Sequence record: OL656110.1
Source of the DNA: Escherichia phage vB_EcoM-RPN242
Reading direction: 5' to 3' (one strand)
DNA: 64,000 nt
The notes under the pieces are model-generated. The model made no database searches, was not told the DNA's origin, and saw only the letters and a list, made by a program, of their open reading frames with translations. Position numbers and translations under genes: made by a program. Positions 821-57,500 of the stretch are shown piece after piece (position 1 is the first letter of the stretch; each line of letters opens with the position of its first letter).

Positions 821-1347
821 TTCACTTCCTCTTTATTGTTGATCGTCGTTAATAATTCTACACCCATAACCTTCTGGGACAAAATGTTAACCGCCTCTTG
901 GATGCTCTTCAGGGACATTGTCTCAACAAGTGACGATGCGTCATTATGCCGGTCGGTTAGGTACATATTGCGCAGATTGTTGTAGTTCGTGCGGTTGATG
1001 CACGCAGTGTTCAGTGCTATATTCAGGATATACATCATCTGTTCAATGGTTACATCCTTTGGCATAGCGTGGATGTAATAGATCGAGCCTTCAAAATAGA
1101 CGTCTACCAGTTCATCTGGTATCTTGATGCCACCACCGGCATACTCTTCGATCATCCTGAACAGAGACTCTGGTTGCTCGCTGGCGATCTTATGCGTAAC
1201 AGTCGCCGAAAGACCGTCGCCTGGTTTAACAGGCCTGTTGTATTCAGTAAGGAATACATTATGTCCGCCGCCGATGATGTGCTCGGCGAATTTGGAGGAT
1301 GCCTGAGCAGCGTTCTCCGCATGGTATGAAACGACGACTGTAAACAT
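805..1347 (-). CDS. hypothetical protein (180 aa)
   Basis: Complete ORF with ATG start; 3' end overlaps uvsX start by 16 nt; no recognisable motif. Confidence 0.6.
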   Translation of the reverse strand: MFTVVVSYHAENAAQASSKFAEHIIGGGHNVFLTEYNRPVKPGDGLSATVTHKIASEQPESLFRMIEEYAGGGIKIPDELVDVYFEGSIYYIHAMPKDVTIEQMMYILNIALNTACINRTNYNNLRNMYLTDRHNDASSLVETMSLKSIQEAVNILSQKVMGVELLTTINNKEEVKWPVH

Positions 1348-1901
1348 TAGAACTCCAGGGTCAGAGGGGTTTCTGCGGACTTATCGTAATCCGCGCCACC
1401 AGCAGCACGCAGGCGATTGCGATCGTTCTTGCGTTTGTGTGCCAATATGTAAGTCTCAATGTCGATCTCCATATAAGAACACGCAGACGACAGGAAGAAC
1501 ATGAGAGTCTCAACGCAAGGATCGTTCATGAATTGCCCAAGGCGGTACGTAACATTGCGATGCCCTACAACACCCAAAGCAGATGGGGTGAATTCGCGAT
1601 TACTAAGGACTTCAAATTCTTCTTCGATCTCACCTTTGGTGCGGTCCACAAGGATGAAGCACAACATGAAGTGTACCACGTCCACCAGTTCATAAACTGC
1701 GTTCGTATGGTCAAACCCGATGTCGTTGCCATAGACCTTCCAGTCACGGGTGGTTTCATCAAGGAACTCTGCCCACTCACGATAGATGGAGTTGATGACT
1801 GCGTTCTGACTCCATACATTCTTCCACTCTTCCCCAAAGTAGGCCACGTTGGTGGCCTTTTGGAGTTCGAGCAGGCTTTTGATATGTCCTGCTGTGATCA
1901 T
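1347..1901 (-). CDS. putative all-alpha NTP pyrophosphatase (dCTPase/dimeric dUTPase/MazG-like)
   Basis: 184 aa; acidic EIEEEFE and YELVDVVHF segments and C-terminal K..N..R pattern reminiscent of T4 gp56-type enzymes; ATGA overlap with neighbour. Tentative. Confidence 0.45.
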   Translation of the reverse strand: MITAGHIKSLLELQKATNVAYFGEEWKNVWSQNAVINSIYREWAEFLDETTRDWKVYGNDIGFDHTNAVYELVDVVHFMLCFILVDRTKGEIEEEFEVLSNREFTPSALGVVGHRNVTYRLGQFMNDPCVETLMFFLSSACSYMEIDIETYILAHKRKNDRNRLRAAGGADYDKSAETPLTLEF

Positions 1902-2467
1902 TTACGTTCTCCGTAGAATTTAACGAACGGTTCCCAACCATCAAATGGATTGAGGAATTCGTAGTCCACTTTCATTTGGTCAATGAAAGCCTCTATATCG
2001 TCCTCTATGATACCAGCACGGTCGGCCTTTGAAATACGGGTGATAGGACATTTCGTACTCAGCGCCCATTCATATTCCTGAGGGGTACGCAGATCGCTCA
2101 CGATATAATGGACGTGGGGGTTCTGCTCTACCAGAGGAAGCTGGAAGCGCTTGAAGAATGCCAGGAACAGATCGGGTTGTACGTAACGCAAGCCCGTATC
2201 GCTGCCTAGATGAAGCCAGATCTGCCGTGGAGTTAAGCCCTTGGGGTTATCAGGGTGGGTGTAAGGAACGTCCTTCACGGCATCCTCTACCTCCGCTGGG
2301 AGCCATGGGTAGATGTAGTTGGCTACACGGCGCAGTTCATCAGAGAAAGAAAGGCGCTGTATGTCCATATCACCCTGTAAGTGGTGATAACTGATCAGGG
2401 ACTCCAAACAGAAGTCCTTACCGGAGCGTTTGCGCCCCGTAAAGAATTCAAGATTTGGGTACATCAT
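1898..2467 (-). CDS. deoxynucleoside monophosphate kinase (T4 gp1-like)
   Basis: 189 aa; N-terminal P-loop FTGRKRSGKDF matches T4 gp1 LSGVKRSGKDT; ATGA overlaps on both sides. Confidence 0.7.
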   Translation of the reverse strand: MMYPNLEFFTGRKRSGKDFCLESLISYHHLQGDMDIQRLSFSDELRRVANYIYPWLPAEVEDAVKDVPYTHPDNPKGLTPRQIWLHLGSDTGLRYVQPDLFLAFFKRFQLPLVEQNPHVHYIVSDLRTPQEYEWALSTKCPITRISKADRAGIIEDDIEAFIDQMKVDYEFLNPFDGWEPFVKFYGERK

Positions 2468-3510
2468 ACTACACCTTCCAGGAACTTAGGATCAACGATC
2501 TTGCGGTCAACCGGAGAATGGGTGAGCGCGGTGTTCAAGCCATGATCCTGAATCAGGTCCAGGTTAATGAGCTTTTCGTTCAGTTTGCAGTGCAGACAGT
2601 ACGCCATCTGTACAATCAGGCCGCGATCCGCATCGTATTCCTTCAGGTGGGCGACCACAGTTTCCCAAGGGCTGCCGATATCACAGTGATGAAGCACGCC
2701 AGTGAACAGATTGCGGATATGGTTCTGGTTGGTCACGTTCTTGAAGTGAATCATGGAGTTGATGAACCCAGCTTCTACTTTGGTGTCCTTCGTGATCTTT
2801 CCCAGCTGCTTCTGGCTGACTTCATTGTTGTAGTAATGAAGATTGTTAGAGAATAGCTTGTACTGACCGACATCAACATCCAGCACCCGAGCAATCACTT
2901 CCTGAAGAATAGAGAACTCAATGAAGTTGATTGAACTCATCCCCCACAGAACATCCTGTGAGCGATTGATGACCGTCAGGTTCAGACGACCTTCAACGAT
3001 GGCGAACAACAGAGCCAGGTTACACACCATGTCCTTAGTCTTCGCTTCGCCGCTCTCGCTGAACTTCGCCAGACCAGCATCCGAATCTAGAGCCGGGTCA
3101 TAGATGGTGAGGTACGCCTGGCGAGTGTTTGGGTTCTTGCGCAGGCGGTTAATAACGCTATCCAGCTGGCCATGGGCGTACAGACGCGGACCATAAGCAG
3201 CTCGCCATGTTACCCCATCATCCGAAAAGTTAGCAGCGCGAGGCAATACGCGTGACAGGAACTTTATGTCGTTGCGGCCTGACAACACCCAGAAGGTCTC
3301 GCCGATGGCAGCGATAGCCGATGAGTTGCGACCTTCAATAGAGAGCCAGCGGTCACGGATGTCGGCGACGGTTATGGTCACGCCATCAAGGAAGCGGGTG
3401 CTATCAGTATTGATTTCAGCATTACCAGGATCAGATTCGATCCCGAATTCACGGATAGCCAAGACAGCCTGCTTCAGCATGTCATTGTTGTTAATTGCTT
3501 TGATTTCCAT
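2464..3510 (-). CDS. thymidylate synthase-fold enzyme (ThyA / pyrimidine hydroxymethylase family) with ~100-aa C-terminal extension
   Basis: 348 aa; collinear with ThyA: AAIGETFWVLSG, NPNTRQAYLTIYDP, catalytic-Cys region DMVCNLALLFAIVEGRLNLTVINRSQDVLWG, then VGQYKLFSNNLHYYN; extra C-terminal domain not found in canonical ThyA. Confidence 0.8.
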   Translation of the reverse strand: MEIKAINNNDMLKQAVLAIREFGIESDPGNAEINTDSTRFLDGVTITVADIRDRWLSIEGRNSSAIAAIGETFWVLSGRNDIKFLSRVLPRAANFSDDGVTWRAAYGPRLYAHGQLDSVINRLRKNPNTRQAYLTIYDPALDSDAGLAKFSESGEAKTKDMVCNLALLFAIVEGRLNLTVINRSQDVLWGMSSINFIEFSILQEVIARVLDVDVGQYKLFSNNLHYYNNEVSQKQLGKITKDTKVEAGFINSMIHFKNVTNQNHIRNLFTGVLHHCDIGSPWETVVAHLKEYDADRGLIVQMAYCLHCKLNEKLINLDLIQDHGLNTALTHSPVDRKIVDPKFLEGVV

Positions 3511-4169
3511 CAGATACTCCCAAAATCACGACAGAGGAATGCCATCACAGCCTGGTCTACTGTTAGGCCGTGAGACTTCATCATACCCGCAGCCACCGTA
3601 GGGAACAAGTCTTTATGTCGTTGACGATGGTCATGAACTCTCTCCCACTTCTCGACCACCAGACTTTCATTGAAGTCCACACCACCGTTACGTGATTTAA
3701 CGCGGGAGATACACGTTTCAAGGGGAGTGTCCATAAAGAGCACAACCAATTCACGTGGTGGGCGTGTCAGGCGGGGGATCCAAGAACTCAATAATGTTGA
3801 TGGAATGATACCTTCGAAAATCACATCATATTTCAAGTATTCTGGTTGGTCAGCAATAGACAACGCGAACAACATCTGCTCAGTGTCCTTCAGGGAATCA
3901 ACCCCCTTGGACTTCGACTTGTCATATTTACCGATACAGACCACGTTGAACGAAGGACAGACAGTCAGCATGACCTTGCCGTTATGGGTCACGACATACG
4001 CCTGAGGATCCCTCTCCGCCAGCTGAGAAGGCACAGTGGATTTACCGCTACCATTGGAGCCTTTGACGTAGTAGATTTGCCCTCGTGCTGGGTAGATCCC
4101 CTTTACGACGGGTGGTTTAAAGAATGTGTGGACGGGGCGCTTCATCAGCCCCTTCAGGGAGTAGGACAT
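3510..4169 (-). CDS. P-loop kinase (nucleotide or DNA-base kinase candidate)
   Basis: Walker A YYVKGSNGSGKST; first ATG at 4169 with GGAG RBS (track start at 4181 is TTG); stop overlaps start of ThyA-fold gene. Confidence 0.7.
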   Translation of the reverse strand: MSYSLKGLMKRPVHTFFKPPVVKGIYPARGQIYYVKGSNGSGKSTVPSQLAERDPQAYVVTHNGKVMLTVCPSFNVVCIGKYDKSKSKGVDSLKDTEQMLFALSIADQPEYLKYDVIFEGIIPSTLLSSWIPRLTRPPRELVVLFMDTPLETCISRVKSRNGGVDFNESLVVEKWERVHDHRQRHKDLFPTVAAGMMKSHGLTVDQAVMAFLCRDFGSI

Positions 4170-4180
4170 AAACTGCTCCA

Positions 4181-4212
4181 ATAAACAAAAGGAGCTGCTA
4201 TTATAGCAGCCC
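4181..4212 (-). terminator. putative rho-independent terminator
   Basis: Hairpin gctgct-attat-agcagc (4194..4210) followed on minus strand by tccttttgtttat. Confidence 0.5.
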
Positions 4213-8106: not shown

Positions 8107-9129
8107 TCAGTTAGACTTGAGATACTGCTCGAATTCGTCAATGGAAGCCGTGTTTCTGGCATTCGGTTGAGACTGAGACTGAGACTGAGCCTGCGACGGC
8201 GCGGCCTGTTGCTGTTTCAGGCTGTCTTGAGCAGTTGGCTGATGTGTAGTCTGGGTGCTAGGAGCATGAGCCATCGTGGCTGCACCACCTTCAACCAGAG
8301 GCTGGTCATCAGGGATTGCCAGAACTTTGCGCAGGCGCTTTTCCAGGGAGTCGTAGTCTTTGAAGTTAGCCGGATTGAAGAATTCAAACAGGCTGTGCTC
8401 GCGAGACCAGACGTCTTCCATATACGCTTCGTCATCACTCAGCGGGGCAGGGTTCTCCCACACCACCTTACTGAAGTTTGCCACCAGACCTTCCCAGTTC
8501 CCAAACTTCTTCTGCTCGCCAAAGAGCTTCAGGTTCAGGTTGGCACCTTCCCACAGATCGAACGGATCGAATTTAGGGTCGGTTGGGAACTTAGGATTCT
8601 GCGCCTGATCCAGGATTTTCTTGATGGCGTTACCAAATTCCAGCAGGAAGACCTTGCCGTTGTTTTCCGGTACGTTGACATCTTTGATCACCAGGATGTT
8701 AGCGTAGTATTTGGTGTCGGGTAGACGTTTCTTCAGGATGTCCTTCAGCTTTTCGTCGTTCGTTTCTTTCTGCTGCGCCCACAGCGGACGGTCATGGTCG
8801 CGCACCGGATCGTCGTTGCCGAACGTCTGAGGTGAGTTCTCAATGTACCAACCACCAGGACCCTGGAACTGATGTTTCATGATCATGGCACAAGGGGTGA
8901 GGATCTGATCTTTATCGATCGTCCCTTCTTCCTGTGCCTTGAGGTCTACCAGCGGGACTGGCAGGAAGCGGATGATGTTCTCTGAGATACCATCTTTGTT
9001 CCAAGTCCATTTCCAGATGCGAGGATCCTTCTGGAAACCGGACTTCTGGCCTTGCTGTGCAAGACGCGCCTGCATAGCTTCAGTTTGCTGGCCACGGGAT
9101 GCTTTCAGACGATCGAATAAATTACCCAT
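8107..9129 (-). CDS. 32: single-stranded DNA-binding protein (T4 gp32-like)
   Basis: 340 aa; IRFLPVP, YYANILVIKDVNVPENNGKVFLLEFG and DLWEGANLNLKL match gp32 core motifs; Q/S-rich acidic C-terminal tail. Confidence 0.85.
   Translation of the reverse strand: MGNLFDRLKASRGQQTEAMQARLAQQGQKSGFQKDPRIWKWTWNKDGISENIIRFLPVPLVDLKAQEEGTIDKDQILTPCAMIMKHQFQGPGGWYIENSPQTFGNDDPVRDHDRPLWAQQKETNDEKLKDILKKRLPDTKYYANILVIKDVNVPENNGKVFLLEFGNAIKKILDQAQNPKFPTDPKFDPFDLWEGANLNLKLFGEQKKFGNWEGLVANFSKVVWENPAPLSDDEAYMEDVWSREHSLFEFFNPANFKDYDSLEKRLRKVLAIPDDQPLVEGGAATMAHAPSTQTTHQPTAQDSLKQQQAAPSQAQSQSQSQPNARNTASIDEFEQYLKSN
8168..8190. repeat. tandem hexanucleotide repeat (tgagac x ~3.8)
   Basis: Encodes the SQSQSQSQ low-complexity stretch in the gp32-like C-terminus. 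Confidence 0.6.
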
Positions 9130-36281: not shown

Positions 36282-37049
36282 ATGGCACCCCGCGCATATC
36301 GTTTCAGTCTCACCGCCCCGCAGATTGAGCAATTGCTCCTCTCTATCTATGATGCTATCAAGTCAGAAGATATCATCTATGATTATGCTGCAGGTGGGAC
36401 TGCTGGACAAGTCGCAGCAGCTTCTGCTGTCAAGAACATGTGGTTGAAGCTCAACGAGATGGTGACAGGCCAAGGTCTCAAAGATGCCATCAACGATGCA
36501 GAAGACAGCAACGTGTTCACCGACTATTATAAGTCTTTACTGGATCGCGAAGGTTGGAAATTTATTGGATCTCCAGCAGATGAACTTCAGCGAGGCGACA
36601 TCGATACCTCGAACTTCAAAGGTGGTGAGGTCATTCTACTTCAGAAGAACGCTTCGGGCAACCCAGAATTCCAATACTGGAAGCGAACCCCTGTTGCTGG
36701 GGGTGATCCTACCTTTGCATGGGCTTCGGTCTATGAAGGGAACTCCAATGATTCCAGCATAGAGATTCCCGTGGTTGGCACCAGCGTACTCAAGGACATC
36801 CCCAAGGCACTCTTCCATATGATCGAGTTCAGAGTGCATGTCTACGATGAGACACTGGGTCATTGGCAAGACACCGACGGGAAGGTAGGGTATCGTGGCG
36901 AGGATCTGATCTACAGTGTATACAACCATATTCAGACCAAACCTCTCGCCACCATTGACTTCAGCCAAGATACGGACAATATGACGGTTTCTGTAACGTC
37001 GTTGGAACCGAATGTCAAGTGCCATCTGTCCTTCGTTGCGGGTTACTAA
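36282..37049 (+). CDS. hypothetical late protein (255 aa), possibly structural
   Basis: ATG at 36282 with AGAGGAATGAAAC leader; lone plus-strand gene inside a minus-strand block; late promoter upstream. Confidence 0.6.
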   Translation: MAPRAYRFSLTAPQIEQLLLSIYDAIKSEDIIYDYAAGGTAGQVAAASAVKNMWLKLNEMVTGQGLKDAINDAEDSNVFTDYYKSLLDREGWKFIGSPADELQRGDIDTSNFKGGEVILLQKNASGNPEFQYWKRTPVAGGDPTFAWASVYEGNSNDSSIEIPVVGTSVLKDIPKALFHMIEFRVHVYDETLGHWQDTDGKVGYRGEDLIYSVYNHIQTKPLATIDFSQDTDNMTVSVTSLEPNVKCHLSFVAGY

Positions 37050-38764
37050 ACCTCAAACACGGCATCAGTGAACCAAGCGGGGAAGAACTCTGGGTTGCGC
37101 ATCATCAGTGATTCAAAAGAAGAATCAAGGATGTACGTCGCAGCCCAGTCATTCACACCCCTGACCGAACGCCCACACATCTGAACGATACGCAGTACCG
37201 CCATCCTGAAGTACGCCGATGGGTCCACGCTGTTGACGTGGGCCACCAGAGGATCACCAAGGTAATCATATGGCACCTTGATCAAGATCTGAAATCGACT
37301 ATAATCGCCTTTGAAGTCATACCCCTCTTCCATGGCCGGACTGGCGATGACACAAGGCGTCTTCGTCCTGAACGCGTGTTCCATGATGTCCATCAGAGCC
37401 TTACGAGTACGAGGAACGTGAATCATATTCCGGTACTTACTGAACTTTTGTAGAGCCAGGGCGCGGTCATAACTGACTGTGTGAATGATGCCAGACTGCC
37501 CAGGGTGGAACGCGATAATTTCATCCACGTATTCAGCCAGCTTCTTCATCTCGTAGTCGCCCATGTTCGCTGTCATCTTCATGATGGGCATGTAGTTGAC
37601 TTTCCGGTTCTCAATCGGGATAGGGTTGCCGATCTGTATCTTGTGGTACTCACCCTCGCGGATACCCAGTGACCGGGCGTACGAGTCAATCCCACAAATG
37701 GTAGCCGACATGTGGACGTGGTAGTCACCCTTGCGGAACAGACCGAACTGGGATACATCAGAGGCGATGACAGGCTTGAACTGAATCATACCCTTGTCCT
37801 TCTCCTGTACGATGAAAGTGCTGGCGTTGGTCTGCCCCATGATACCACAGTAGTCGCTGAGGTTGTGAAGATTATCAATAATATCAGACAGCTTCATCAC
37901 CTGGGCTTCAGTCAGGCGCTCGTCCTCTACCAGTTCCTCAAGAGTTTCCAATAGGGCTTCAACCTTGCCATACAGTTCATCAAATATCGCATGCATCTCA
38001 CCAGACAGGGAATACAGCTTGCCCAATTCGTAGTTCTCTGTGCGGATGATGATATCCTTGATGGTCTCCACGATAGGCACTCCCTCGGGGATCGTAAGCA
38101 ACCCTTCCACAGCCTTTATGTTGTATTCCATGATAGTATGCTCTAGGAGCGTAGAGGGCATCTTATGACACTCGTCAAGGATCAGCATATCGGCACGGTT
38201 TTCCGGCTTCATACAAATCGTCGTACACATCTCCACCATCATGGCGGCGTTGGTGCAGCGCAGGGAGGAGACGTCGGTCCACTGTCTACGCGCCTGAACA
38301 TATGGGCAACGATTCTTACTACAGTGGCCATCACGGCATGCCATACGGCACTGAATGGCGTTGTAGTATAGGTCGGGACTGATGTGGCAACGATAGTTCT
38401 TCTTGCCCTTCAGGATGTCTATCGCCACGGCTTTCTCTGCTGCATACTGATCCTGTAAACCTTTGGTCGGCGTCGTGATAGACGTGCGGAACTGACCATA
38501 CGGGTTGTGCTCAAGAACCAAATGGCGAAGCACGTTATGGATGGTAGTGCCGATGAGGGATTTACCTACACCAGTCGGAGCCTCGATGATCACGTGTTTG
38601 AATTTCTTATTCACAAGGGCATCGATGGCTTCAACGATGCATTCCATCTGGCCGGGGTTGGCGGTGTCATACGGGAAGAACTCAGTGGCAAGAGACTTGA
38701 TGCGGTCTATGCTGACTGGTCCGACGCCGTTAAGCGCCTTGGTATATTGGTTGAATGCTGTCAC
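37046..38764 (-). CDS. DinG/XPD-like superfamily-2 DNA helicase with Fe-S cluster cysteines
   Basis: 572 aa; GTG start preceded by AGGAGGA; Walker A APTGVGKS, DECH box LILDECH, four-Cys cluster YRCH...CRMACRDGHCSKNRC. Confidence 0.7.
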   Translation of the reverse strand: MTAFNQYTKALNGVGPVSIDRIKSLATEFFPYDTANPGQMECIVEAIDALVNKKFKHVIIEAPTGVGKSLIGTTIHNVLRHLVLEHNPYGQFRTSITTPTKGLQDQYAAEKAVAIDILKGKKNYRCHISPDLYYNAIQCRMACRDGHCSKNRCPYVQARRQWTDVSSLRCTNAAMMVEMCTTICMKPENRADMLILDECHKMPSTLLEHTIMEYNIKAVEGLLTIPEGVPIVETIKDIIIRTENYELGKLYSLSGEMHAIFDELYGKVEALLETLEELVEDERLTEAQVMKLSDIIDNLHNLSDYCGIMGQTNASTFIVQEKDKGMIQFKPVIASDVSQFGLFRKGDYHVHMSATICGIDSYARSLGIREGEYHKIQIGNPIPIENRKVNYMPIMKMTANMGDYEMKKLAEYVDEIIAFHPGQSGIIHTVSYDRALALQKFSKYRNMIHVPRTRKALMDIMEHAFRTKTPCVIASPAMEEGYDFKGDYSRFQILIKVPYDYLGDPLVAHVNSVDPSAYFRMAVLRIVQMCGRSVRGVNDWAATYILDSSFESLMMRNPEFFPAWFTDAVFEV

Positions 38765-38811
38765 TTTCTTCCTCCTATGGGATTCGCCTTTAGTTTAACC
38801 GATTCCCAGGA

Positions 38812-38850
38812 ACGAAAAAGCCGGAGCATTGTACTCCGGCTTTCTCTTTT
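38812..38850. terminator. bidirectional rho-independent terminator
   Basis: agccggag-cattgta-ctccggct hairpin (38819..38841) with T-run on plus strand and A-run on the other side. Confidence 0.65.
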
Positions 38851-38892
38851 GCCATACCCTGATTGCAGAGCCTGGCCGCGCGTCAGATAGAA

Positions 38893-39171
38893 TTACTTGC
38901 CGTTGGCAGCGTTCTTCAGACCTTCGCCCACTTTGAATTTCACAACGTTTTTCGCCGCGATCTGAATGGTCTGGCCGTTCAGAGGGTTGCGACCTTCACG
39001 CGCTTCTTGGTGTTTCACTTCGAACGCACCGAAGCCAACCAGCTGTACAGATGCGCCTGCAGCAACTGCAGTTTTAACACCGTCGATAAAGGATGCCACT
39101 ACTTTCTCCGCTTCGCCTTTGGTGATATTCTGGGTCGAAGCAATGTGGGCAACAAATTCAGTACGATTCAT
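38893..39171 (-). CDS. HU/IHF-family DNA-binding protein
   Basis: 92 aa; MNRTEFV ... FGAFEVKHQEAREGRNPLNGQTIQIAAKNVVKFKVGEGLKNA, the HU beta-arm signature. Confidence 0.8.
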   Translation of the reverse strand: MNRTEFVAHIASTQNITKGEAEKVVASFIDGVKTAVAAGASVQLVGFGAFEVKHQEAREGRNPLNGQTIQIAAKNVVKFKVGEGLKNAANGK

Positions 39172-39264
39172 CTGGATTTCTCCGTTGGGTTAATGTTTAC
39201 TTTCATGTTCACTACAAGAGGACTACATCTTACCTAACAAAACATATTGAATAAAGCGAAATTA

Positions 39265-39513
39265 TTAGCCTTTCGCCACGTCTTCAGTCGTCATCGTGCC
39301 ATAACATCCACAGCGTTCACAAATCACTCTGACGCAAGGCTTAAAAGTCTGAATATTAGTCACAGGAACGTTCACCGCCTTTGAAGAAACTTGCATTTCG
39401 CGGACTTCAACCCGTTGTTCGGCCAGGCGCTCATCGTCCAAGAAGGTGATCGTCTTGTGAGAACAACGCATTGACGATTCACCAACCCAGATTATTGCCA
39501 TGTTGGGACTCAT
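39265..39513 (-). CDS. hypothetical protein (82 aa) with CxxC pair
   Basis: Complete ORF with ATG start; ICERCGCYG. Confidence 0.45.
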   Translation of the reverse strand: MSPNMAIIWVGESSMRCSHKTITFLDDERLAEQRVEVREMQVSSKAVNVPVTNIQTFKPCVRVICERCGCYGTMTTEDVAKG

Positions 39514-39788
39514 GATTTGACCTCCGATTTGGAGATTAACGATTCCATCTCCTGACGACCAATGACAGTCTCAACTTTGTCTTCTTCAACCATCATTTCA
39601 TTCAGAAGATCGTACCCCAGGACTTGTACACCAAAAGACTTTTTGTTCAGTTCTGCCTCAATATTGAGAACTCGCTGAACCGTCAGGCCACCGGAAGAGA
39701 ACGGTACTGGATAGAAGGCGGAACGCACTTGGACACACCCATTTACGCTGTAACGAACCAGCAAGACATCACACCATACGCCAGCCAT
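39510..39788 (-). CDS. hypothetical protein (92 aa)
   Basis: Complete ORF with ATG start. Confidence 0.45.
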   Translation of the reverse strand: MAGVWCDVLLVRYSVNGCVQVRSAFYPVPFSSGGLTVQRVLNIEAELNKKSFGVQVLGYDLLNEMMVEEDKVETVIGRQEMESLISKSEVKS

Positions 39789-50966: not shown

Positions 50967-51955
50967 TTATTCAGAAGAACCATATCGTTCTGTCCATTTA
51001 GGACATTTCAAAGGTTCCCACCCTCTATTGAAACGTTCGATAATGCTGTTTGTCGCATTAAAAGCCTTCAGGTCTTTTGTTCTGTACACATGCATGAGGG
51101 CTTCCGCTCTTTTCATTGTTTTTATTGCTTCAAGGAATTTATCAGCTTTTGACCAATACGCATCATTGTCGGGGTTCCATTTACCCTTCTCCCAAGGCAT
51201 CTTAGCCAACATGCCTTTCTGAGCGTTTTCTTTCTGTTTGGCGCGTTGCTCTGGTGTGAATGAGTTGGTTAAGTCCTTCCCATAATTGGGATTGAGTTCC
51301 CCAAGTTTAGCTTTACTGGCACGTTCAGAAAATTGTTCTAAATCTATGTTGGCGCGGCGTTTCTCTAAAACCCGCCTTTTATATTCAGGATCAGAAGCCA
51401 TCCTTTCATGGATTTTCATCAATCCTTTGGTAATTTTCTTGACTTGCTCTGGGGTTCTCTTATATCCATATTGGGGATTATTCTTTCCTCTTCTCCCATA
51501 CATTGGGTTGTTTGCCCCGACGCATTTGGAGACACCCTTTGTGAGTTTGGATATTCTTTGTCCAAATTCTTTCCTTAACTTTTCGTAAAGGTGAGAATTA
51601 AATTTTATACCCGTTGGTGTATACCTACCCCCACGGCTCATCAAAAGAACAGCATATACCATATCAGAATTCGGGAAAGCCAAGGCCAAGCATACATGGA
51701 CAAGATAATGTTGTCTGCCTGTTAATCGAACCAAATTTATCTTATCTTTAGAATATTCAGGGAACATGCTCTTGGGAAGGATGTGGTGCAATTCAGTGTA
51801 GTCACCATCAGAATATTTGAAAGATTGAACCATCATCAAATACTTCTTGATGAAATGCGGTTTACCGCCTTTAGAAATCAATAATTCGTAAAACATAACA
51901 GGAACTCCAAATGAAAGTTCCTGTTATAATATACTTTCTTAACTCACAAAGTAAG
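50860..51955 (-). mobile_element. free-standing homing-endonuclease insertion (candidate mobile element)
   Basis: AT-rich island holding only the HNH gene, inserted between two conserved-looking genes and bounded by intergenic AT-rich sequence on both sides. Confidence 0.45.
50967..51896 (-). CDS. HNH homing endonuclease with NUMOD-like repeats
   Basis: 309 aa; HNH core ELHHILPKS ... N ... H; repeated NPMYGRRGKNNPQYG and NPNYGK motifs; ATG start with GGAG RBS. Confidence 0.75.
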   Translation of the reverse strand: MFYELLISKGGKPHFIKKYLMMVQSFKYSDGDYTELHHILPKSMFPEYSKDKINLVRLTGRQHYLVHVCLALAFPNSDMVYAVLLMSRGGRYTPTGIKFNSHLYEKLRKEFGQRISKLTKGVSKCVGANNPMYGRRGKNNPQYGYKRTPEQVKKITKGLMKIHERMASDPEYKRRVLEKRRANIDLEQFSERASKAKLGELNPNYGKDLTNSFTPEQRAKQKENAQKGMLAKMPWEKGKWNPDNDAYWSKADKFLEAIKTMKRAEALMHVYRTKDLKAFNATNSIIERFNRGWEPLKCPKWTERYGSSE

Positions 51956-53149
51956 TTACTTTTTAAATAAATTTAGTAGGTTTTTAGAACCAGATGTCGC
52001 TTTAGGTTGTCCTTCCCCATCGTATCCAACCTTCCCGCGCGGTTTTTTACCTTGCTGTACAGCCTCTACACAACGGGTATATTTCTGAAGTTCACAAAAC
52101 ATATTTTCTCCTGCCATTATATTTAAATGGCGATCCCAAGGCTCTTCCACAGACCAAAATTCTTCCCTGTTATACCCAAGAGGACCATAAACTGCGTCCT
52201 GGTTGTCCCGTAGCCAGAAGATGCATTCTTCGTGGGTCATACCGTCTTTGTTCAGGAACAGCAGATCAATACCTGCGCGACAGCCTGGTCCAGCAACCGT
52301 GAAGTGGTTCTCACTGAAAGGATATTCAGGAATGTAAGTGAAGTCTACCCAGATCTGATAGGCCAGGAATGGACCAAGCCCTTCGATGTCGTCATACATG
52401 CGCTGGTATACTTCCAAAGGAGTACCAAGGCGCAGCAGGTCATGGAAATAATTTGGATACTTGTTGACGAATGCCTTCAGGGAGCGGATGACACGCATTG
52501 GCATGTACGGTTCCCAACCTTCGATGGTGTAGAAGTCCGGCTCTGCTTCGGCTATCGCCTTGGCTTCTTTATAATCCATGTTCTGGGTTGAACCGTCTTT
52601 ACAGATCAGATTCACCATCATCCCACCGAAGCGCTGCTCCTTGTGGTTGACAACCATCTCAGGGAAAGCCAGGCATTGCTTCAGGCCGCCCGTGTTGAAG
52701 GCATTGGTGAATACCTTACCGCCGTCGGCCTCGAACTTCTGAAGTCGTTCGCGGGTTGCATCGAGGTTGATCTCGGCGAATTCTTTGATCGTCATCGCGC
52801 CGCCGATAGCCTGGATTGGATCCCAGAGGTTGAACATGCGGAACATCACGCAGTTGAACATCTTGTCGGCCATACCCAGAGCATCGTTGTTGACAATGTT
52901 GTTGATCAGGTTGAGAGACTGCCTGTCGTGCTCTCTCCGGACATTACAGAACTTGACCTGCCGTAGTATGGGATTATCAGTCCAAGGAGCAGGAAGGCGC
53001 TGGACGTCCTTCTTGACGTGGATCTGATAACGATCGCGCATCCATTCGTAAGACAGGCGGGTATGGGTCGGACTGAGAACCGGTTTGGCCGACTTTATCT
53101 TTTCTTCACGGACACCGCAGTACGGGACGTCTAGGGCTTTATCTTTCAT
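51956..53149 (-). CDS. hypothetical enzyme-sized protein (397 aa)
   Basis: ATG start with AAGAGGATACC leader; no motif recognised. Confidence 0.65.
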   Translation of the reverse strand: MKDKALDVPYCGVREEKIKSAKPVLSPTHTRLSYEWMRDRYQIHVKKDVQRLPAPWTDNPILRQVKFCNVRREHDRQSLNLINNIVNNDALGMADKMFNCVMFRMFNLWDPIQAIGGAMTIKEFAEINLDATRERLQKFEADGGKVFTNAFNTGGLKQCLAFPEMVVNHKEQRFGGMMVNLICKDGSTQNMDYKEAKAIAEAEPDFYTIEGWEPYMPMRVIRSLKAFVNKYPNYFHDLLRLGTPLEVYQRMYDDIEGLGPFLAYQIWVDFTYIPEYPFSENHFTVAGPGCRAGIDLLFLNKDGMTHEECIFWLRDNQDAVYGPLGYNREEFWSVEEPWDRHLNIMAGENMFCELQKYTRCVEAVQQGKKPRGKVGYDGEGQPKATSGSKNLLNLFKK

Positions 53150-56098: not shown

Positions 56099-56767
56099 TT
56101 ACTCAATCTGTGCGCCGACGAAGTAATTGATCGTCGCGTCGGATGATTGGAAGTTCACCATCTGTAGATCAGCACAGGCACGCAGAGTGTAGTTGCCTTC
56201 GATCATTTTCAGGTTGGCAACATCCAGCGGCATTACGAAGTCCGGCAGCGCGGTTTCGCCCAGCTCAACAGTGTAGTTGTTGGAGTTGTCCAAGGTAGTG
56301 GTGGTTGCAACCAGGCGAGTTTTGCCACCCTGAGCAACCAGGCGCACAGTCTTGTGTCCGAGGGTAGAGCAGGCGCGGGTCAGTTCTTTCATCTTCTCTG
56401 GAGTGATGATCGCTTCAAAGTCAACAGACGGCAGTTCAATGGTGTCAGCCGGGACAACCGTGAGTTCTTTAGCAGAACGCCAGAATTGCAGCTGAGAGCT
56501 TTCGCCTTTCAACAGGATGTAGTCCTGATGGAATTCGGCTTTGGCACCTTTGAAGGAAGGTAGGCGCTGGATGGCCAGAAGTTTGGTCAGGTCCAGAATC
56601 GGGAACTCAAACGGGAAGTCTTCTTCGATCTGCGCCACGGCGATCACAGTAGAAGAATCATTAATACTGCGCAGCATCTTACCCGGTGTCAGAACGATAG
56701 ATGGGTTGATGGTCTCAAAGTTGGCCAGCAACTGAAGTGTACGTTCGGAGAGAGTGATCTCTTGCAT
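56099..56767 (-). CDS. 45: sliding clamp (T4 gp45-like)
   Basis: 222 aa; N-terminal TLQLLANFETINPSIVL parallels T4 gp45 TALLKNFATINSGIML; position upstream of gp44/gp62/regA as in T4. Confidence 0.75.
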   Translation of the reverse strand: MQEITLSERTLQLLANFETINPSIVLTPGKMLRSINDSSTVIAVAQIEEDFPFEFPILDLTKLLAIQRLPSFKGAKAEFHQDYILLKGESSQLQFWRSAKELTVVPADTIELPSVDFEAIITPEKMKELTRACSTLGHKTVRLVAQGGKTRLVATTTTLDNSNNYTVELGETALPDFVMPLDVANLKMIEGNYTLRACADLQMVNFQSSDATINYFVGAQIE

Positions 56768-56900
56768 TTGTATGTATCCTCAAAATATAGTGGGGGTTCA
56801 AGTCATGTTTGACGCAATCTAGTATCGCTGTGTTTTGTTTATAGAACAAGTGGCAAATTGCGCTACGCGTTATTAATAAATGCCTTCGGCATTTATGGAC

Positions 56901-56947
56901 TTTATTAAAGATAATAACCTTTATTAAAGATAATAATCTTTATTAAT
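56901..56947. repeat. tandem palindromic iterons (TTTATTAAAGATAATAA x2 plus partial third copy)
   Basis: Copies at 56901..56917 and 56920..56936 are identical, 19-bp period; each unit is TTATTA-aaga-TAATAA; lies in a 361-bp AT-rich region between divergent genes. Confidence 0.7.
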
Positions 56948-56979
56948 CCTATTCGCTTCGCTCATAAAACAAATACTCG

Positions 56980-57009
56980 TTGTTCGCTAACGCTCACAAC
57001 TCGTATAAT
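56980..57009 (+). promoter_or_regulatory. sigma70-like promoter candidate for plus-strand gene
   Basis: TTGTTC - 18 nt - TATAAT (57004..57009), about 120 nt upstream of ATG at 57129. Confidence 0.35.
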
Positions 57010-57128
57010 ACCACGCCATTGTTCAACAAGAAAGCAGTTTTTATTCAACAGCAAAATTAATTTATTTGGTCTAAACATGCACGCGAAATAATATGTATGT
57101 CATGTTAACCAACACACGAGAGTAATAT

Positions 57129-57500
57129 ATGAAACAGTTCGTAGGTTTATACGCAGTCGGGTGTAGTAAGCCAGACGCCAACCTCACCACAGGTCAATTT
57201 ATCACAGGCACCCCAGTTTATCTGACACAGCTGGCGTCAGACAAGAACTTACCATCGGAACCGCGATTTGTCCCCCTTGGCTTGATGACAGGCCTGAAAG
57301 TTGGTCTGTATGTCGGCGTTGTGACGTTTGAAAACGGCATCGAAGCGAAGGTTCTGCCATTCAAATTGGGTAGTGAACAAATGCTGAAGGATACGATCAG
57401 TGAACACCTGAACTCACAATGTCTGGCTTCTCTGGATAAATTGTTCGGCGTAGTATCTGATGAAGGCGAGGCCACCCCCGCCTATGTGAATCAAGATTAA
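57129..57500 (+). CDS. hypothetical protein (123 aa)
   Basis: Complete plus-strand ORF with ATG start; convergent with uvsW (overlapping stops). Confidence 0.5.
   Translation: MKQFVGLYAVGCSKPDANLTTGQFITGTPVYLTQLASDKNLPSEPRFVPLGLMTGLKVGLYVGVVTFENGIEAKVLPFKLGSEQMLKDTISEHLNSQCLASLDKLFGVVSDEGEATPAYVNQD

Follow-up and report, generated by a model that had tools for sequence, protein, structure and literature searches.

A phage-borne HU-family protein of canonical type in an Ackermannviridae genome with thymidine hypermodification genes

Introduction

Why would a virulent phage with genes for thymidine hypermodification carry an HU gene of its own? SPO1 TF1, the HU of another large phage, favors hydroxymethyluracil (hmU) DNA. 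An initial annotation of the 64,000-nucleotide stretch of Escherichia phage vB_EcoM-RPN242 DNA analyzed here (sequence record OL656110.1; called the window throughout) recognized an HU/IHF signature at 38893 to 39171, brought the gene into relation with TF1, and proposed it both as a marker of thymidine modification and as a candidate binder of iterons at 56901 to 56947. Using sequence and structure comparisons, we asked what kind of DNABII protein this gene encodes, whether it goes together with modified DNA, and which DNA it would serve. The reading that we prefer, with a probability of about 0.6, is a canonical HU-type DNA-bending protein that is abundant, homodimeric, and non-specific and that serves the phage's own DNA. 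The features on which the analysis draws are listed in Table 1.

Table 1. Coordinates of the features discussed, numbered from the first nucleotide of the window
Feature	Position	Strand	Evidence or remark
HU-family (DNABII) CDS	38893..39171	minus	ATG-initiated ORF, 92 codons plus stop
Shine-Dalgarno GGAG, 8 nt before the HU ATG	39180..39183	minus	Sequence; invariant in 6 loci, five genera
Conserved element GCTTTATTCAATA-N7-TAGGTAAGATGTAGTCCTCTTGTAGTGAAC upstream of HU	39207..39257	minus	Six-genome alignment, five genera
Direct repeat TGTAGT-N5-TGTAGT upstream of HU	39211-39227	minus
Weak sigma-70-like pair upstream of HU	TTTATT 39250-39255, 17 nt, TAAGAT 39227-39232	minus
Intrinsic terminator hairpin between HU and helicase	38810..38846	.	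Terminator scan
Rad3/DinG-type helicase, downstream neighbor of HU	37046..38764	minus	PF13307, PF04851, PF00270
dUTPase_2 protein	1347-1901		Thymidine-modification context
Thymidylate-synthase-family protein, presumed dUMP hydroxymethylase	2464..3510	minus	PF00303, E = 1e-15
5-hmdU DNA kinase	3510..4181	minus	PF18748, E = 3.8e-109; homolog of ViI gp67
Protein with 5-hmdU DNA kinase (HMUDK) helical domain	51956..53149	minus	PF18723, E = 1.8e-78
Repeat array, two copies of CTTTATTAAAGATAATAAC plus a partial third	56900-56947

Results

The gene encodes an HU-family protein

The HU/IHF signature was borne out from end to end. Residues 1 to 90 of the protein align with model positions 1 to 90 of the 90 in Pfam family PF00216 (Bac_DNA_binding) at an E value of 6.1e-30, and the score of 103.8 bits compares with a cut-off of 22.4 bits. 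The protein also matches PHROG 379 ("DNA binding protein") at an E value of 4e-36, and solved HU/IHF chains among the PDB sequences align with it over their full length (E values of 1e-21 to 1e-18). An AlphaFold2 model, for which 54 homologs served as input, has a mean pLDDT of 95.9 and places helices at residues 3 to 13, 18 to 37, and 83 to 89 and strands at residues 42 to 81. This predicted order of helix, helix, sheet with a long arm, and helix is the expected DNABII fold. Foldseek agreed, superposing the model on HU/IHF structures, 1P71 and 1IHF among them, with a probability of 1.00 and TM scores of 0.78 to 0.90. In its pI of 9.7 and net charge of +4, the protein resembles E. coli HU.

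The ORF is a real gene under selection and not a chance ORF. Compared with its orthologues in three other genera, it has a dN/dS of 0.09 to 0.13, indicating purifying selection, at synonymous sites that are nearly saturated in these comparisons (dS of 1.1 to 1.6). On the opposite strand, a longer ORF (38863..39237) is the codon-aligned mirror frame of the HU gene, an expected artifact.

The protein is a canonical HU and not a TF1 orthologue

To place the protein within the family, we compared it with the NCBIfam models of the four E. coli paralogs. The scores were 72.9 bits for IHF-alpha, 69.7 for HU-beta, 67.9 for IHF-beta, and 67.3 for HU-alpha, and the respective equivalog cut-offs are 111, 157, 115, and 162 bits. 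Because all four scores fall below their cut-offs, the protein is a member of the DNABII family but an orthologue of none of the four. Its nearest cellular relatives are HUs of Flavobacteriia (53% identity, in a search that favors shared 5-residue words), followed by B. subtilis HBsu (43%), E. coli HU-alpha and HU-beta (40 to 41%), SPO1-type TF1 (38%), and IHF-alpha and IHF-beta (28 to 30%). The likeness to bacterial HUs (E. coli HupA/HupB, HBsu, and Anabaena HU) extends to length (92 versus 90 to 92 amino acids) and fold (TM scores of 0.78 to 0.87), but unlike them, this gene is carried by a virulent phage with hypermodification genes. A recent capture of the host gene, which would make the protein an E. 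coli HU orthologue, was rejected on the same identity of 40 to 41% and on the shortfall from the HU-alpha and HU-beta cut-offs (67.3 versus 162 bits and 69.7 versus 157 bits).

This distance from the host proteins also bears on a host-directed role, in which the phage HU would act on the host nucleoid or poison host HU by forming heterodimers with it. SPO1 Gp46 reportedly targets host HU and would be a precedent for phage attack on that protein, and the conserved GFGxF dimer core makes heterodimers conceivable. However, the protein is only 40 to 41% identical to E. coli HU-alpha and HU-beta, and the same protein is kept, at 74 to 97% identity, in phages of Dickeya, Salmonella, Klebsiella, and Serratia. 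We therefore regard a host-directed effector as quite improbable.

Next, we examined individual residues. The protein has the GFGxF dimer core, Arg58, the Gly60-Arg61-Asn62-Pro63 arm tip, Gly66, and Lys86, all of which are canonical for HU. In an alignment of 19 HUs of the clade, G46, G48, F50, G60, R61, N62, and P63 are invariant and F47 and R58 nearly so. Two positions are specific to the clade: Gln55 stands for the usual arm residue Arg55 in nearly all members, and Ackermannviridae HUs have Arg3 instead of Lys3. Further along the arm, Gln67 and Gln70 take the place of the Lys found in reference HUs. Because Gln55 replaces Arg55, the DNA-binding properties may differ from those of a textbook HU.

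For TF1 (PDB entries 1WTU and 1EXE), the reference sequence came from Bacillus phage Goe2. The special relation to TF1 did not survive this comparison: at 38% identity, the protein is no closer to TF1 than to cellular HUs, and the E value against PDB sequences is 4e-11 for TF1 versus about 1e-20 for bacterial HUs (8e-20 for B. anthracis HU). Where TF1 has Phe61, the window protein has Arg61, and neither the Leu48/Asn49 pair that replaces GFG in TF1 nor its Gln66 is present. In addition, TF1 runs to 99 amino acids with a 9-residue C-terminal helix/tail, whereas the window protein, with 92 amino acids, ends 2 residues past the HU core. What the two have in common is their setting: each is the single-copy HU of a large virulent myovirus with a 5-hmdU route for its thymidines, and each gene has a replication gene as its neighbor (the DNA polymerase gene for tf1 in Goe2 and the helicase gene here). 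Given that the canonical HU residues are kept and the TF1 peculiarities are missing, the protein is a canonical HU, neither a TF1 orthologue nor a recent host capture. The TF1 analogy is good only in the sense of a phage that combines hmU-derived DNA with an HU of its own.

HU is a core gene in a conserved replication neighborhood

Over the 4 kb around the HU gene, the window is 98.6% identical to Escherichia phage YX22, 96 to 98% identical to several other coliphages, including AV101, and 92% identical to Shigella phage Ag3. Judged by sequence similarity, the phage is Agtrevirus-like and belongs to subfamily Aglimvirinae of the Ackermannviridae. A tblastn search found HU at an identity of at least 60% in about 269 phage records, with one HU place per genome in each Ackermannviridae record listed; the window likewise holds one DNABII gene. 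Since this count is close to those for the 5-hmdU DNA kinase (about 266), the gp45 intergenic region (273), and the helicase (about 281), HU belongs to the core genes of the enterobacterial Ackermannviridae.

The locus has a conserved layout of variable small ORFs, HU, terminator, helicase, and a convergent gene, and the order of HU, terminator, and helicase is kept in Limestonevirus, Kuttervirus, Taipeivirus, and Miltonvirus. The wider neighborhood is a replication/recombination block that comprises the helicase, RNase H, gp55, gp46, primase, RNR, clamp, clamp loader, and UvsW.

In LIMEstone1, the convergent gene beyond the helicase encodes a protein confirmed as structural, which would suit HU as a virion protein that travels with the packaged genome and condenses DNA or is injected. 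African swine fever virus (ASFV) offers a precedent in that it reportedly packages the HU-like protein pA104R. Against such a role, mass spectrometry of LIMEstone1 virions found 39 proteins, the record flags ORF093 as structural and not ORF095, the HU orthologue, and the HU gene lies in the replication block and not in the structural block. We consider it highly improbable that HU is a virion protein.

HU does not mark thymidine hypermodification

The marker idea presupposed a phage that modifies its thymidines, and genes for hypermodification are indeed present in the window (Table 1). ViI gp67 was used for the in vitro reconstitution of 5-(2-aminoethoxy)methyluridine (5-NeOmdU) (PMC5889632), and Kutter 2011 grouped the thymidylate-synthase homolog of ViI, CBA120, and AG3 with dUMP hydroxymethylases (PMC3184105). 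5-NeOmdU at about 40% of T has been shown for ViI and reported for CBA120 (PMC5889632, PMC11721090), and homologs of the window's genes produce it from 5-hmdU after replication (PMC5889632, PMC11721090, PMC3184105). Read from its genes, the DNA of the window phage would be modified via 5-hmdU, probably with the chemistry of ViI and CBA120.

We then determined whether HU and the kinase go together more widely by searching for homologs of both in 50,697 phage records, for which organism lists start at 10 records. The two coincided only in this phage family. HU is not the marker that it had been proposed to be: of the kinase-positive records from Pseudomonas (54) and Vibrio (45) phages, at most 10 of each can be HU positive, as both genera stay below the threshold of the HU list, and at most 6 of the 94 HU-positive Ralstonia phage records can carry the kinase, whose list does not include Ralstonia. 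On this record-level evidence, the association between HU and the kinase is lineage-specific. Because most kinase-positive Pseudomonas and Vibrio phages are without HU, a dedicated HU is not required for hypermodification. Vibrio phage K471, in which both the kinase and the helicase are present, has no HU gene directly upstream of the helicase, the place where the enterobacterial genera have theirs, and the paper on phiW-14 and SP-15 mentions no HU-type protein.

DNABII genes are common cargo in viruses (537 phage records match at an E value of ≤1e-5), and other HU-bearing phages are mostly without thymidine hypermodification genes. SPbeta YonN, the HUs of temperate Ralstonia and Burkholderia phages, and ASFV pA104R are 30 to 40% identical to the window HU and are not syntenic with it.

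These distributions have to be weighed together with the comparison to TF1 when asking whether the window HU is a TF1-like specialist, that is, a transcription or replication regulator that discriminates self by preferring 5-NeOmdU phage DNA over host DNA. The window has the hypermodification genes, about 40% of T is 5-NeOmdU in ViI-like phages (PMC11721090, PMC5889632), the core genes of the family include both HU and the 5-hmdU kinase, and the arm has the clade-specific changes Gln55, Gln67, and Gln70. With just 40% identity to host HU, the protein is also not a redundant recent copy. Furthermore, the preference of TF1 reportedly acts via DNA flexure and not via base contacts (Grove et al. 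1996 J Mol Biol 260:196). Such a mechanism would be open to any HU. However, the identity of 38% and the PDB E value (4e-11 versus 1e-20 for bacterial HUs) give TF1 no privileged place; Phe61, Leu48/Asn49, Gln66, and the C-terminal tail of TF1 are all missing; K471 has the kinase and helicase without an HU directly upstream of the latter; and most kinase-positive Pseudomonas and Vibrio phages do without HU. We regard a TF1-like specialist as possible, with the odds clearly against it.

The HU gene appears to be its own, highly expressed transcription unit

Upstream of HU lies a block of about 50 nt that is conserved over five genera and has the cross-genus form GCTTTATTCAATA-N7-TAGGTAAGNTGTAGTCCTCTTGTAGTGAAC. 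Within this element a 13-mer is invariant, and TAAnnT is retained in all six genomes from the five genera. Both GTTAGGTAAG and TGTAGT-N5-TGTAGT were found at the HU locus only within the window. The element is presumably the HU gene's own promoter/operator. A sigma-70 consensus scan of positions 38600 to 39600 called no promoter upstream of HU, and the authors of the LIMEstone1 genome annotated none upstream of the orthologue there. The only hit of that scan lay downstream of HU, within the terminator region.

Several candidate signals were rejected. The upstream motif is not a recurring phage promoter, as GCTTTATTCAATA with up to 2 mismatches gave 2 matches in the window versus 1.25 expected. 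A promoter search by k-mer over-representation returned mainly coding repeats; ACTATAT(CATG), which came out of that work, is a lead only. As for structure in the HU leader RNA, RNAalifold paired GCUUUAUUC with the start-codon region GAAUGAAUCG with no covariation, single-sequence folds of the leader were no stabler than shuffles (z of -0.6 to +1.35), and an Rfam search gave no match for it.

At the other end of the gene, each of the six orthologous loci has a GC-rich hairpin with a U-run behind it; the folding energies are -20 to -24 kcal/mol, and the stem sequences differ from one another. Conservation was judged by folding each sequence separately, since a MAFFT alignment put the arms out of register. 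A terminator is annotated at this position in LIMEstone1, and we read the hairpin 3' of HU as a genuine terminator by its sequence. Because an A-run lies on one side of the hairpin and a T-run on the other, it could work in both directions.

Codon use was measured as the fraction of classical E. coli optimal codons. HU has a fraction of 0.75, which ranks first among the 56 ORFs of the window (median, 0.55). For comparison, the sliding clamp has 0.70 and a 340-amino-acid ORF at 8107 to 9129 has 0.65; the AV101 gene that corresponds to the latter by position is annotated as an ssDNA-binding protein. The top rank indicates high expression of HU, although over 91 codons the fraction is a noisy proxy for abundance. 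In the literature searched, we found no expression, binding, or genetic data on the HU of any Ackermannviridae phage and nothing relevant on Ackermannviridae transcriptomics.

The repeats at 56900 to 56947 resemble sites for another kind of regulator

The repeats sit in a 362-bp divergent region between the sliding-clamp gene (56099 to 56767, minus strand) and a 123-amino-acid ORF. This gp45 upstream region, present in 273 records, has a mean column identity of 84% over four genera, but its least conserved part in Kuttervirus and Taipeivirus is the repeat segment. The second copy of the repeat, a tandem duplication of 19 bp, is missing from Ag3 and Limestonevirus. Each unit is internally palindromic (TTATTA-N4-TAATAA), as would be expected for a sequence-specific dimeric regulator and as is typical of helix-turn-helix dimers. 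In the 64 kb, sites matching the E. coli IHF consensus WATCAANNNNTTR numbered 1 versus 2.3 expected, a count that covers the E. coli consensus alone and leaves room for a different specificity; none lies at the repeats or at the HU promoter.

One pattern seemed to connect the two loci. CTTTATTMAA has 3 matches versus 0.15 expected, in the HU upstream region and in both "iteron" copies and nowhere else in the window. We rejected it as a link, since the pattern had been derived from those very sequences, which makes the argument circular, and the shared part comes to just 7 to 9 nt. The second copy is private to this lineage, and no computational result connects HU with the iterons that it had been suggested to bind.

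A related possibility is that HU is a site-specific, IHF-like factor that organizes an origin or promoter from defined sites, either the 19-bp repeats or the TGTAGT repeats. DNABII proteins with a site preference can be homodimeric, as Hbb and TF1 are. Likeness to IHF itself is seen in the fold, with TM scores of 0.83 to 0.90 to 1IHF, and in the last strand, where a "VVxF" motif is similar to that of IHF-alpha. The NCBIfam score for IHF-alpha (72.9 bits) is about that for HU-beta (69.7 bits). Conservation adds to this, in that the gp45 upstream region is unusually conserved (84%, 273 records) and the HU upstream element is invariant and unique in the window. However, IHF is a pair of alpha and beta paralogs, and this phage has a single DNABII gene, whose product is 28 to 30% identical to the IHF subunits versus 40 to 53% to HUs. 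IHF consensus sites are not enriched in the window, with the one site against 2.3 expected lying elsewhere than at the repeats. The 19-bp duplication that gave the second repeat copy is private and falls in the least conserved segment for Kuttervirus and Taipeivirus, and the TTATTA-N4-TAATAA palindrome is of the helix-turn-helix type. Finally, a codon bias this strong suggests that the protein is made in stoichiometric and not in regulatory amounts. Taken together, these points make an IHF-like role hardly probable.

Discussion

In the canonical reading that we prefer, the single gene copy would mean a homodimer, whose two beta-ribbon arms would wrap the minor groove while intercalation of Pro63 kinks the DNA. 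Minor-groove binding and proline intercalation are known from co-crystals of HU and IHF with DNA (1P71 and 1IHF). The protein would be made in large amounts in the replicative phase from its own transcription unit and would act as a non-sequence-specific architectural factor in replication, recombination, late transcription, and condensation before packaging. Because the HU fold reads the minor groove and the 5-NeOmdU chains at C5 lie in the major groove, a hypermodified genome should be tolerated.

We also considered whether a preference for 5-NeOmdU DNA has arisen in the Ackermannviridae HU independently of TF1, so that it forms a self-marking phage "chromatin," which we think unlikely. The preference would then come from altered flexibility or charge and not from base contacts, and the Arg55-to-Gln and Lys-to-Gln changes in the arm might be part of the adaptation. 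HU might even hide sites from the DNA kinase and thereby shape the partial (about 40%) hypermodification. If this were true, large virulent phages with C5-pyrimidine modification would have recruited DNABII proteins repeatedly and convergently.

As it stands, the HU gene is ordinary, and its value lies in its context, a phage family with a positively charged thymidine hypermodification in which HU belongs to the core genes and is apparently highly expressed. Should HU tell modified from unmodified DNA, the TF1 principle would have a second, independent example, and there would be a way into the organization, replication, and transcription of a hypermodified genome. Such discrimination would matter because the promoters of ViI-like phages and their temporal control are so far poorly defined (PMC3184105). 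Otherwise, the gene is simply a phage-borne supply of HU.

The gene is already known, being annotated across hundreds of Ackermannviridae genomes, and proteins 100% identical to it have been deposited, for example, from vB_EcoM-ZQ1 and PH4. Existing records label it "DNA binding protein," "DNA-binding protein HU-beta," or "transcription factor 1"; the last of these labels, found in some GenBank records, is a name transfer.

Thymidine hypermodification genes

Two minus-strand segments of the window encode thymidine hypermodification functions (see table). The first holds genes for dUTPase_2, for a homolog of thymidylate synthase (presumably a dUMP hydroxymethylase), and for a 5-hmdU DNA kinase (HMUDK) that matches PF18748 with an E value of 4e-109, together with a kinase-like ORF. 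The HMUDK helical-domain protein is encoded separately in the second segment (PF18723; E value, 2e-78). Given this gene set, we consider that the phage DNA very probably carries 5-NeOmdU, as does that of phage ViI. Orthologues of the 3510-4181 kinase are wrongly labelled "terminase small subunit" in many related GenBank/RefSeq records, and other records of 5-hmdU DNA kinase orthologues carry a "thymidylate kinase" or "baseplate hub" label. Adjoining the helical-domain gene is a 309-amino-acid ORF with a NUMOD3 motif (50967-51896, minus strand), probably a free-standing homing endonuclease.

Locations of features in the window
Feature	Position	Strand	Remarks
Thymidine hypermodification genes	1347-4181 and 51956-53149	-	
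Helicase downstream of HU	37046-38764	-	GTG start in every genus compared
Antisense ORF	38863-39237	+	124 codons; longer than the HU gene
Near-palindromic motif TTATTCAATA (or TTATTCAACA)	39245-39257 (-), 44152 (-), 57040 (+), 63380 (-)		
82-aa ORF and 92-aa DUF7425 protein	within 39265-39788	-	
Divergent intergenic region	56768-57128		362 bp; upstream of sliding-clamp gene; holds the repeats
Conserved hairpin AAATGCCTTCGGCATTT	56877-56893		directly upstream of the repeats
"Iteron" repeats	56900-56947		19-nt unit CTTTATTAAAGATAATAAC, two copies and a partial one
Predicted sigma-70 promoter	56980-57009	+	near consensus, TTGTTC-18 nt-TATAAT

The HU locus

The variable part of the HU locus lies directly upstream of HU, at 39265-39788 with the 82-aa ORF and the DUF7425 protein, where the megablast alignment to coliphage AV101 and most other relatives splits in two. 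At this position, AV101 has a single annotated gene of 441 bp (146 codons), and in other genera its place is taken by small, unrelated ORFs with the labels superinfection exclusion, endolysin, or lipoprotein. On the downstream side, the helicase has a segment rich in cysteines, CHISPDLYYNAIQCRMACRDGHCSKNRCPYV, suggestive of an Fe-S helicase of the XPD/DinG type, and its homologs reach viruses of Vibrio, Pseudomonas, Rhizobium, and haloarchaea.

The long ORF antisense to HU was rejected as a gene. Its frame is the codon-aligned mirror of HU, in which a stop requires a TTA, CTA, or TCA codon in the sense frame, and it is free of stops in all six genera; it is open because of HU codon bias, as expected of a mirror-frame by-product.

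In the HU leader (39172-39262, minus strand), the invariant GCUUUAUUC has its complement in GAAUGAAUCG, the region of the start codon, and the two pair in the minimum-energy fold of at least three of six genomes. Covariation in this pairing was absent among the six genomes, and the leader folds were no more stable than shuffled sequences. The arrangement recalls T4 genes whose start site is hidden in read-through transcripts.

Intergenic region and recurring motifs

Ahead of the sliding-clamp gene, the divergent intergenic region matches coding sequence in its degree of conservation (84% column identity across four genera; 273 records). Each unit of the repeats that the initial annotation called iterons is a palindrome, TTATTA-N4-TAATAA; the second of the two full copies, a tandem duplication, does not occur in Shigella phage Ag3 or Limestonevirus. 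The predicted promoter is kept in Agtrevirus, Limestonevirus, Kuttervirus, and Taipeivirus and is oriented towards a 123-amino-acid ORF at 57129-57500.

All four copies of the near-palindromic motif are apparently intergenic and oriented to the downstream gene; a larger promoter architecture shared around these sites was sought and not found. The k-mer ACTATATCATG(A) has four copies on the gene-rich minus strand (16136, 29248, 40450, and 43804), at least two of them at a candidate start codon, and CCCACTATATTTTGAGGA lies at 56785 (minus strand) ahead of the sliding-clamp start. For ViI-like phages, a 2011 paper reported that the late promoter had yet to be identified (PMC3184105). ACTATAT, found eight times on the minus strand of the window versus twice on the plus strand, and the ACTATATCATG k-mer may represent a late-promoter-like box.
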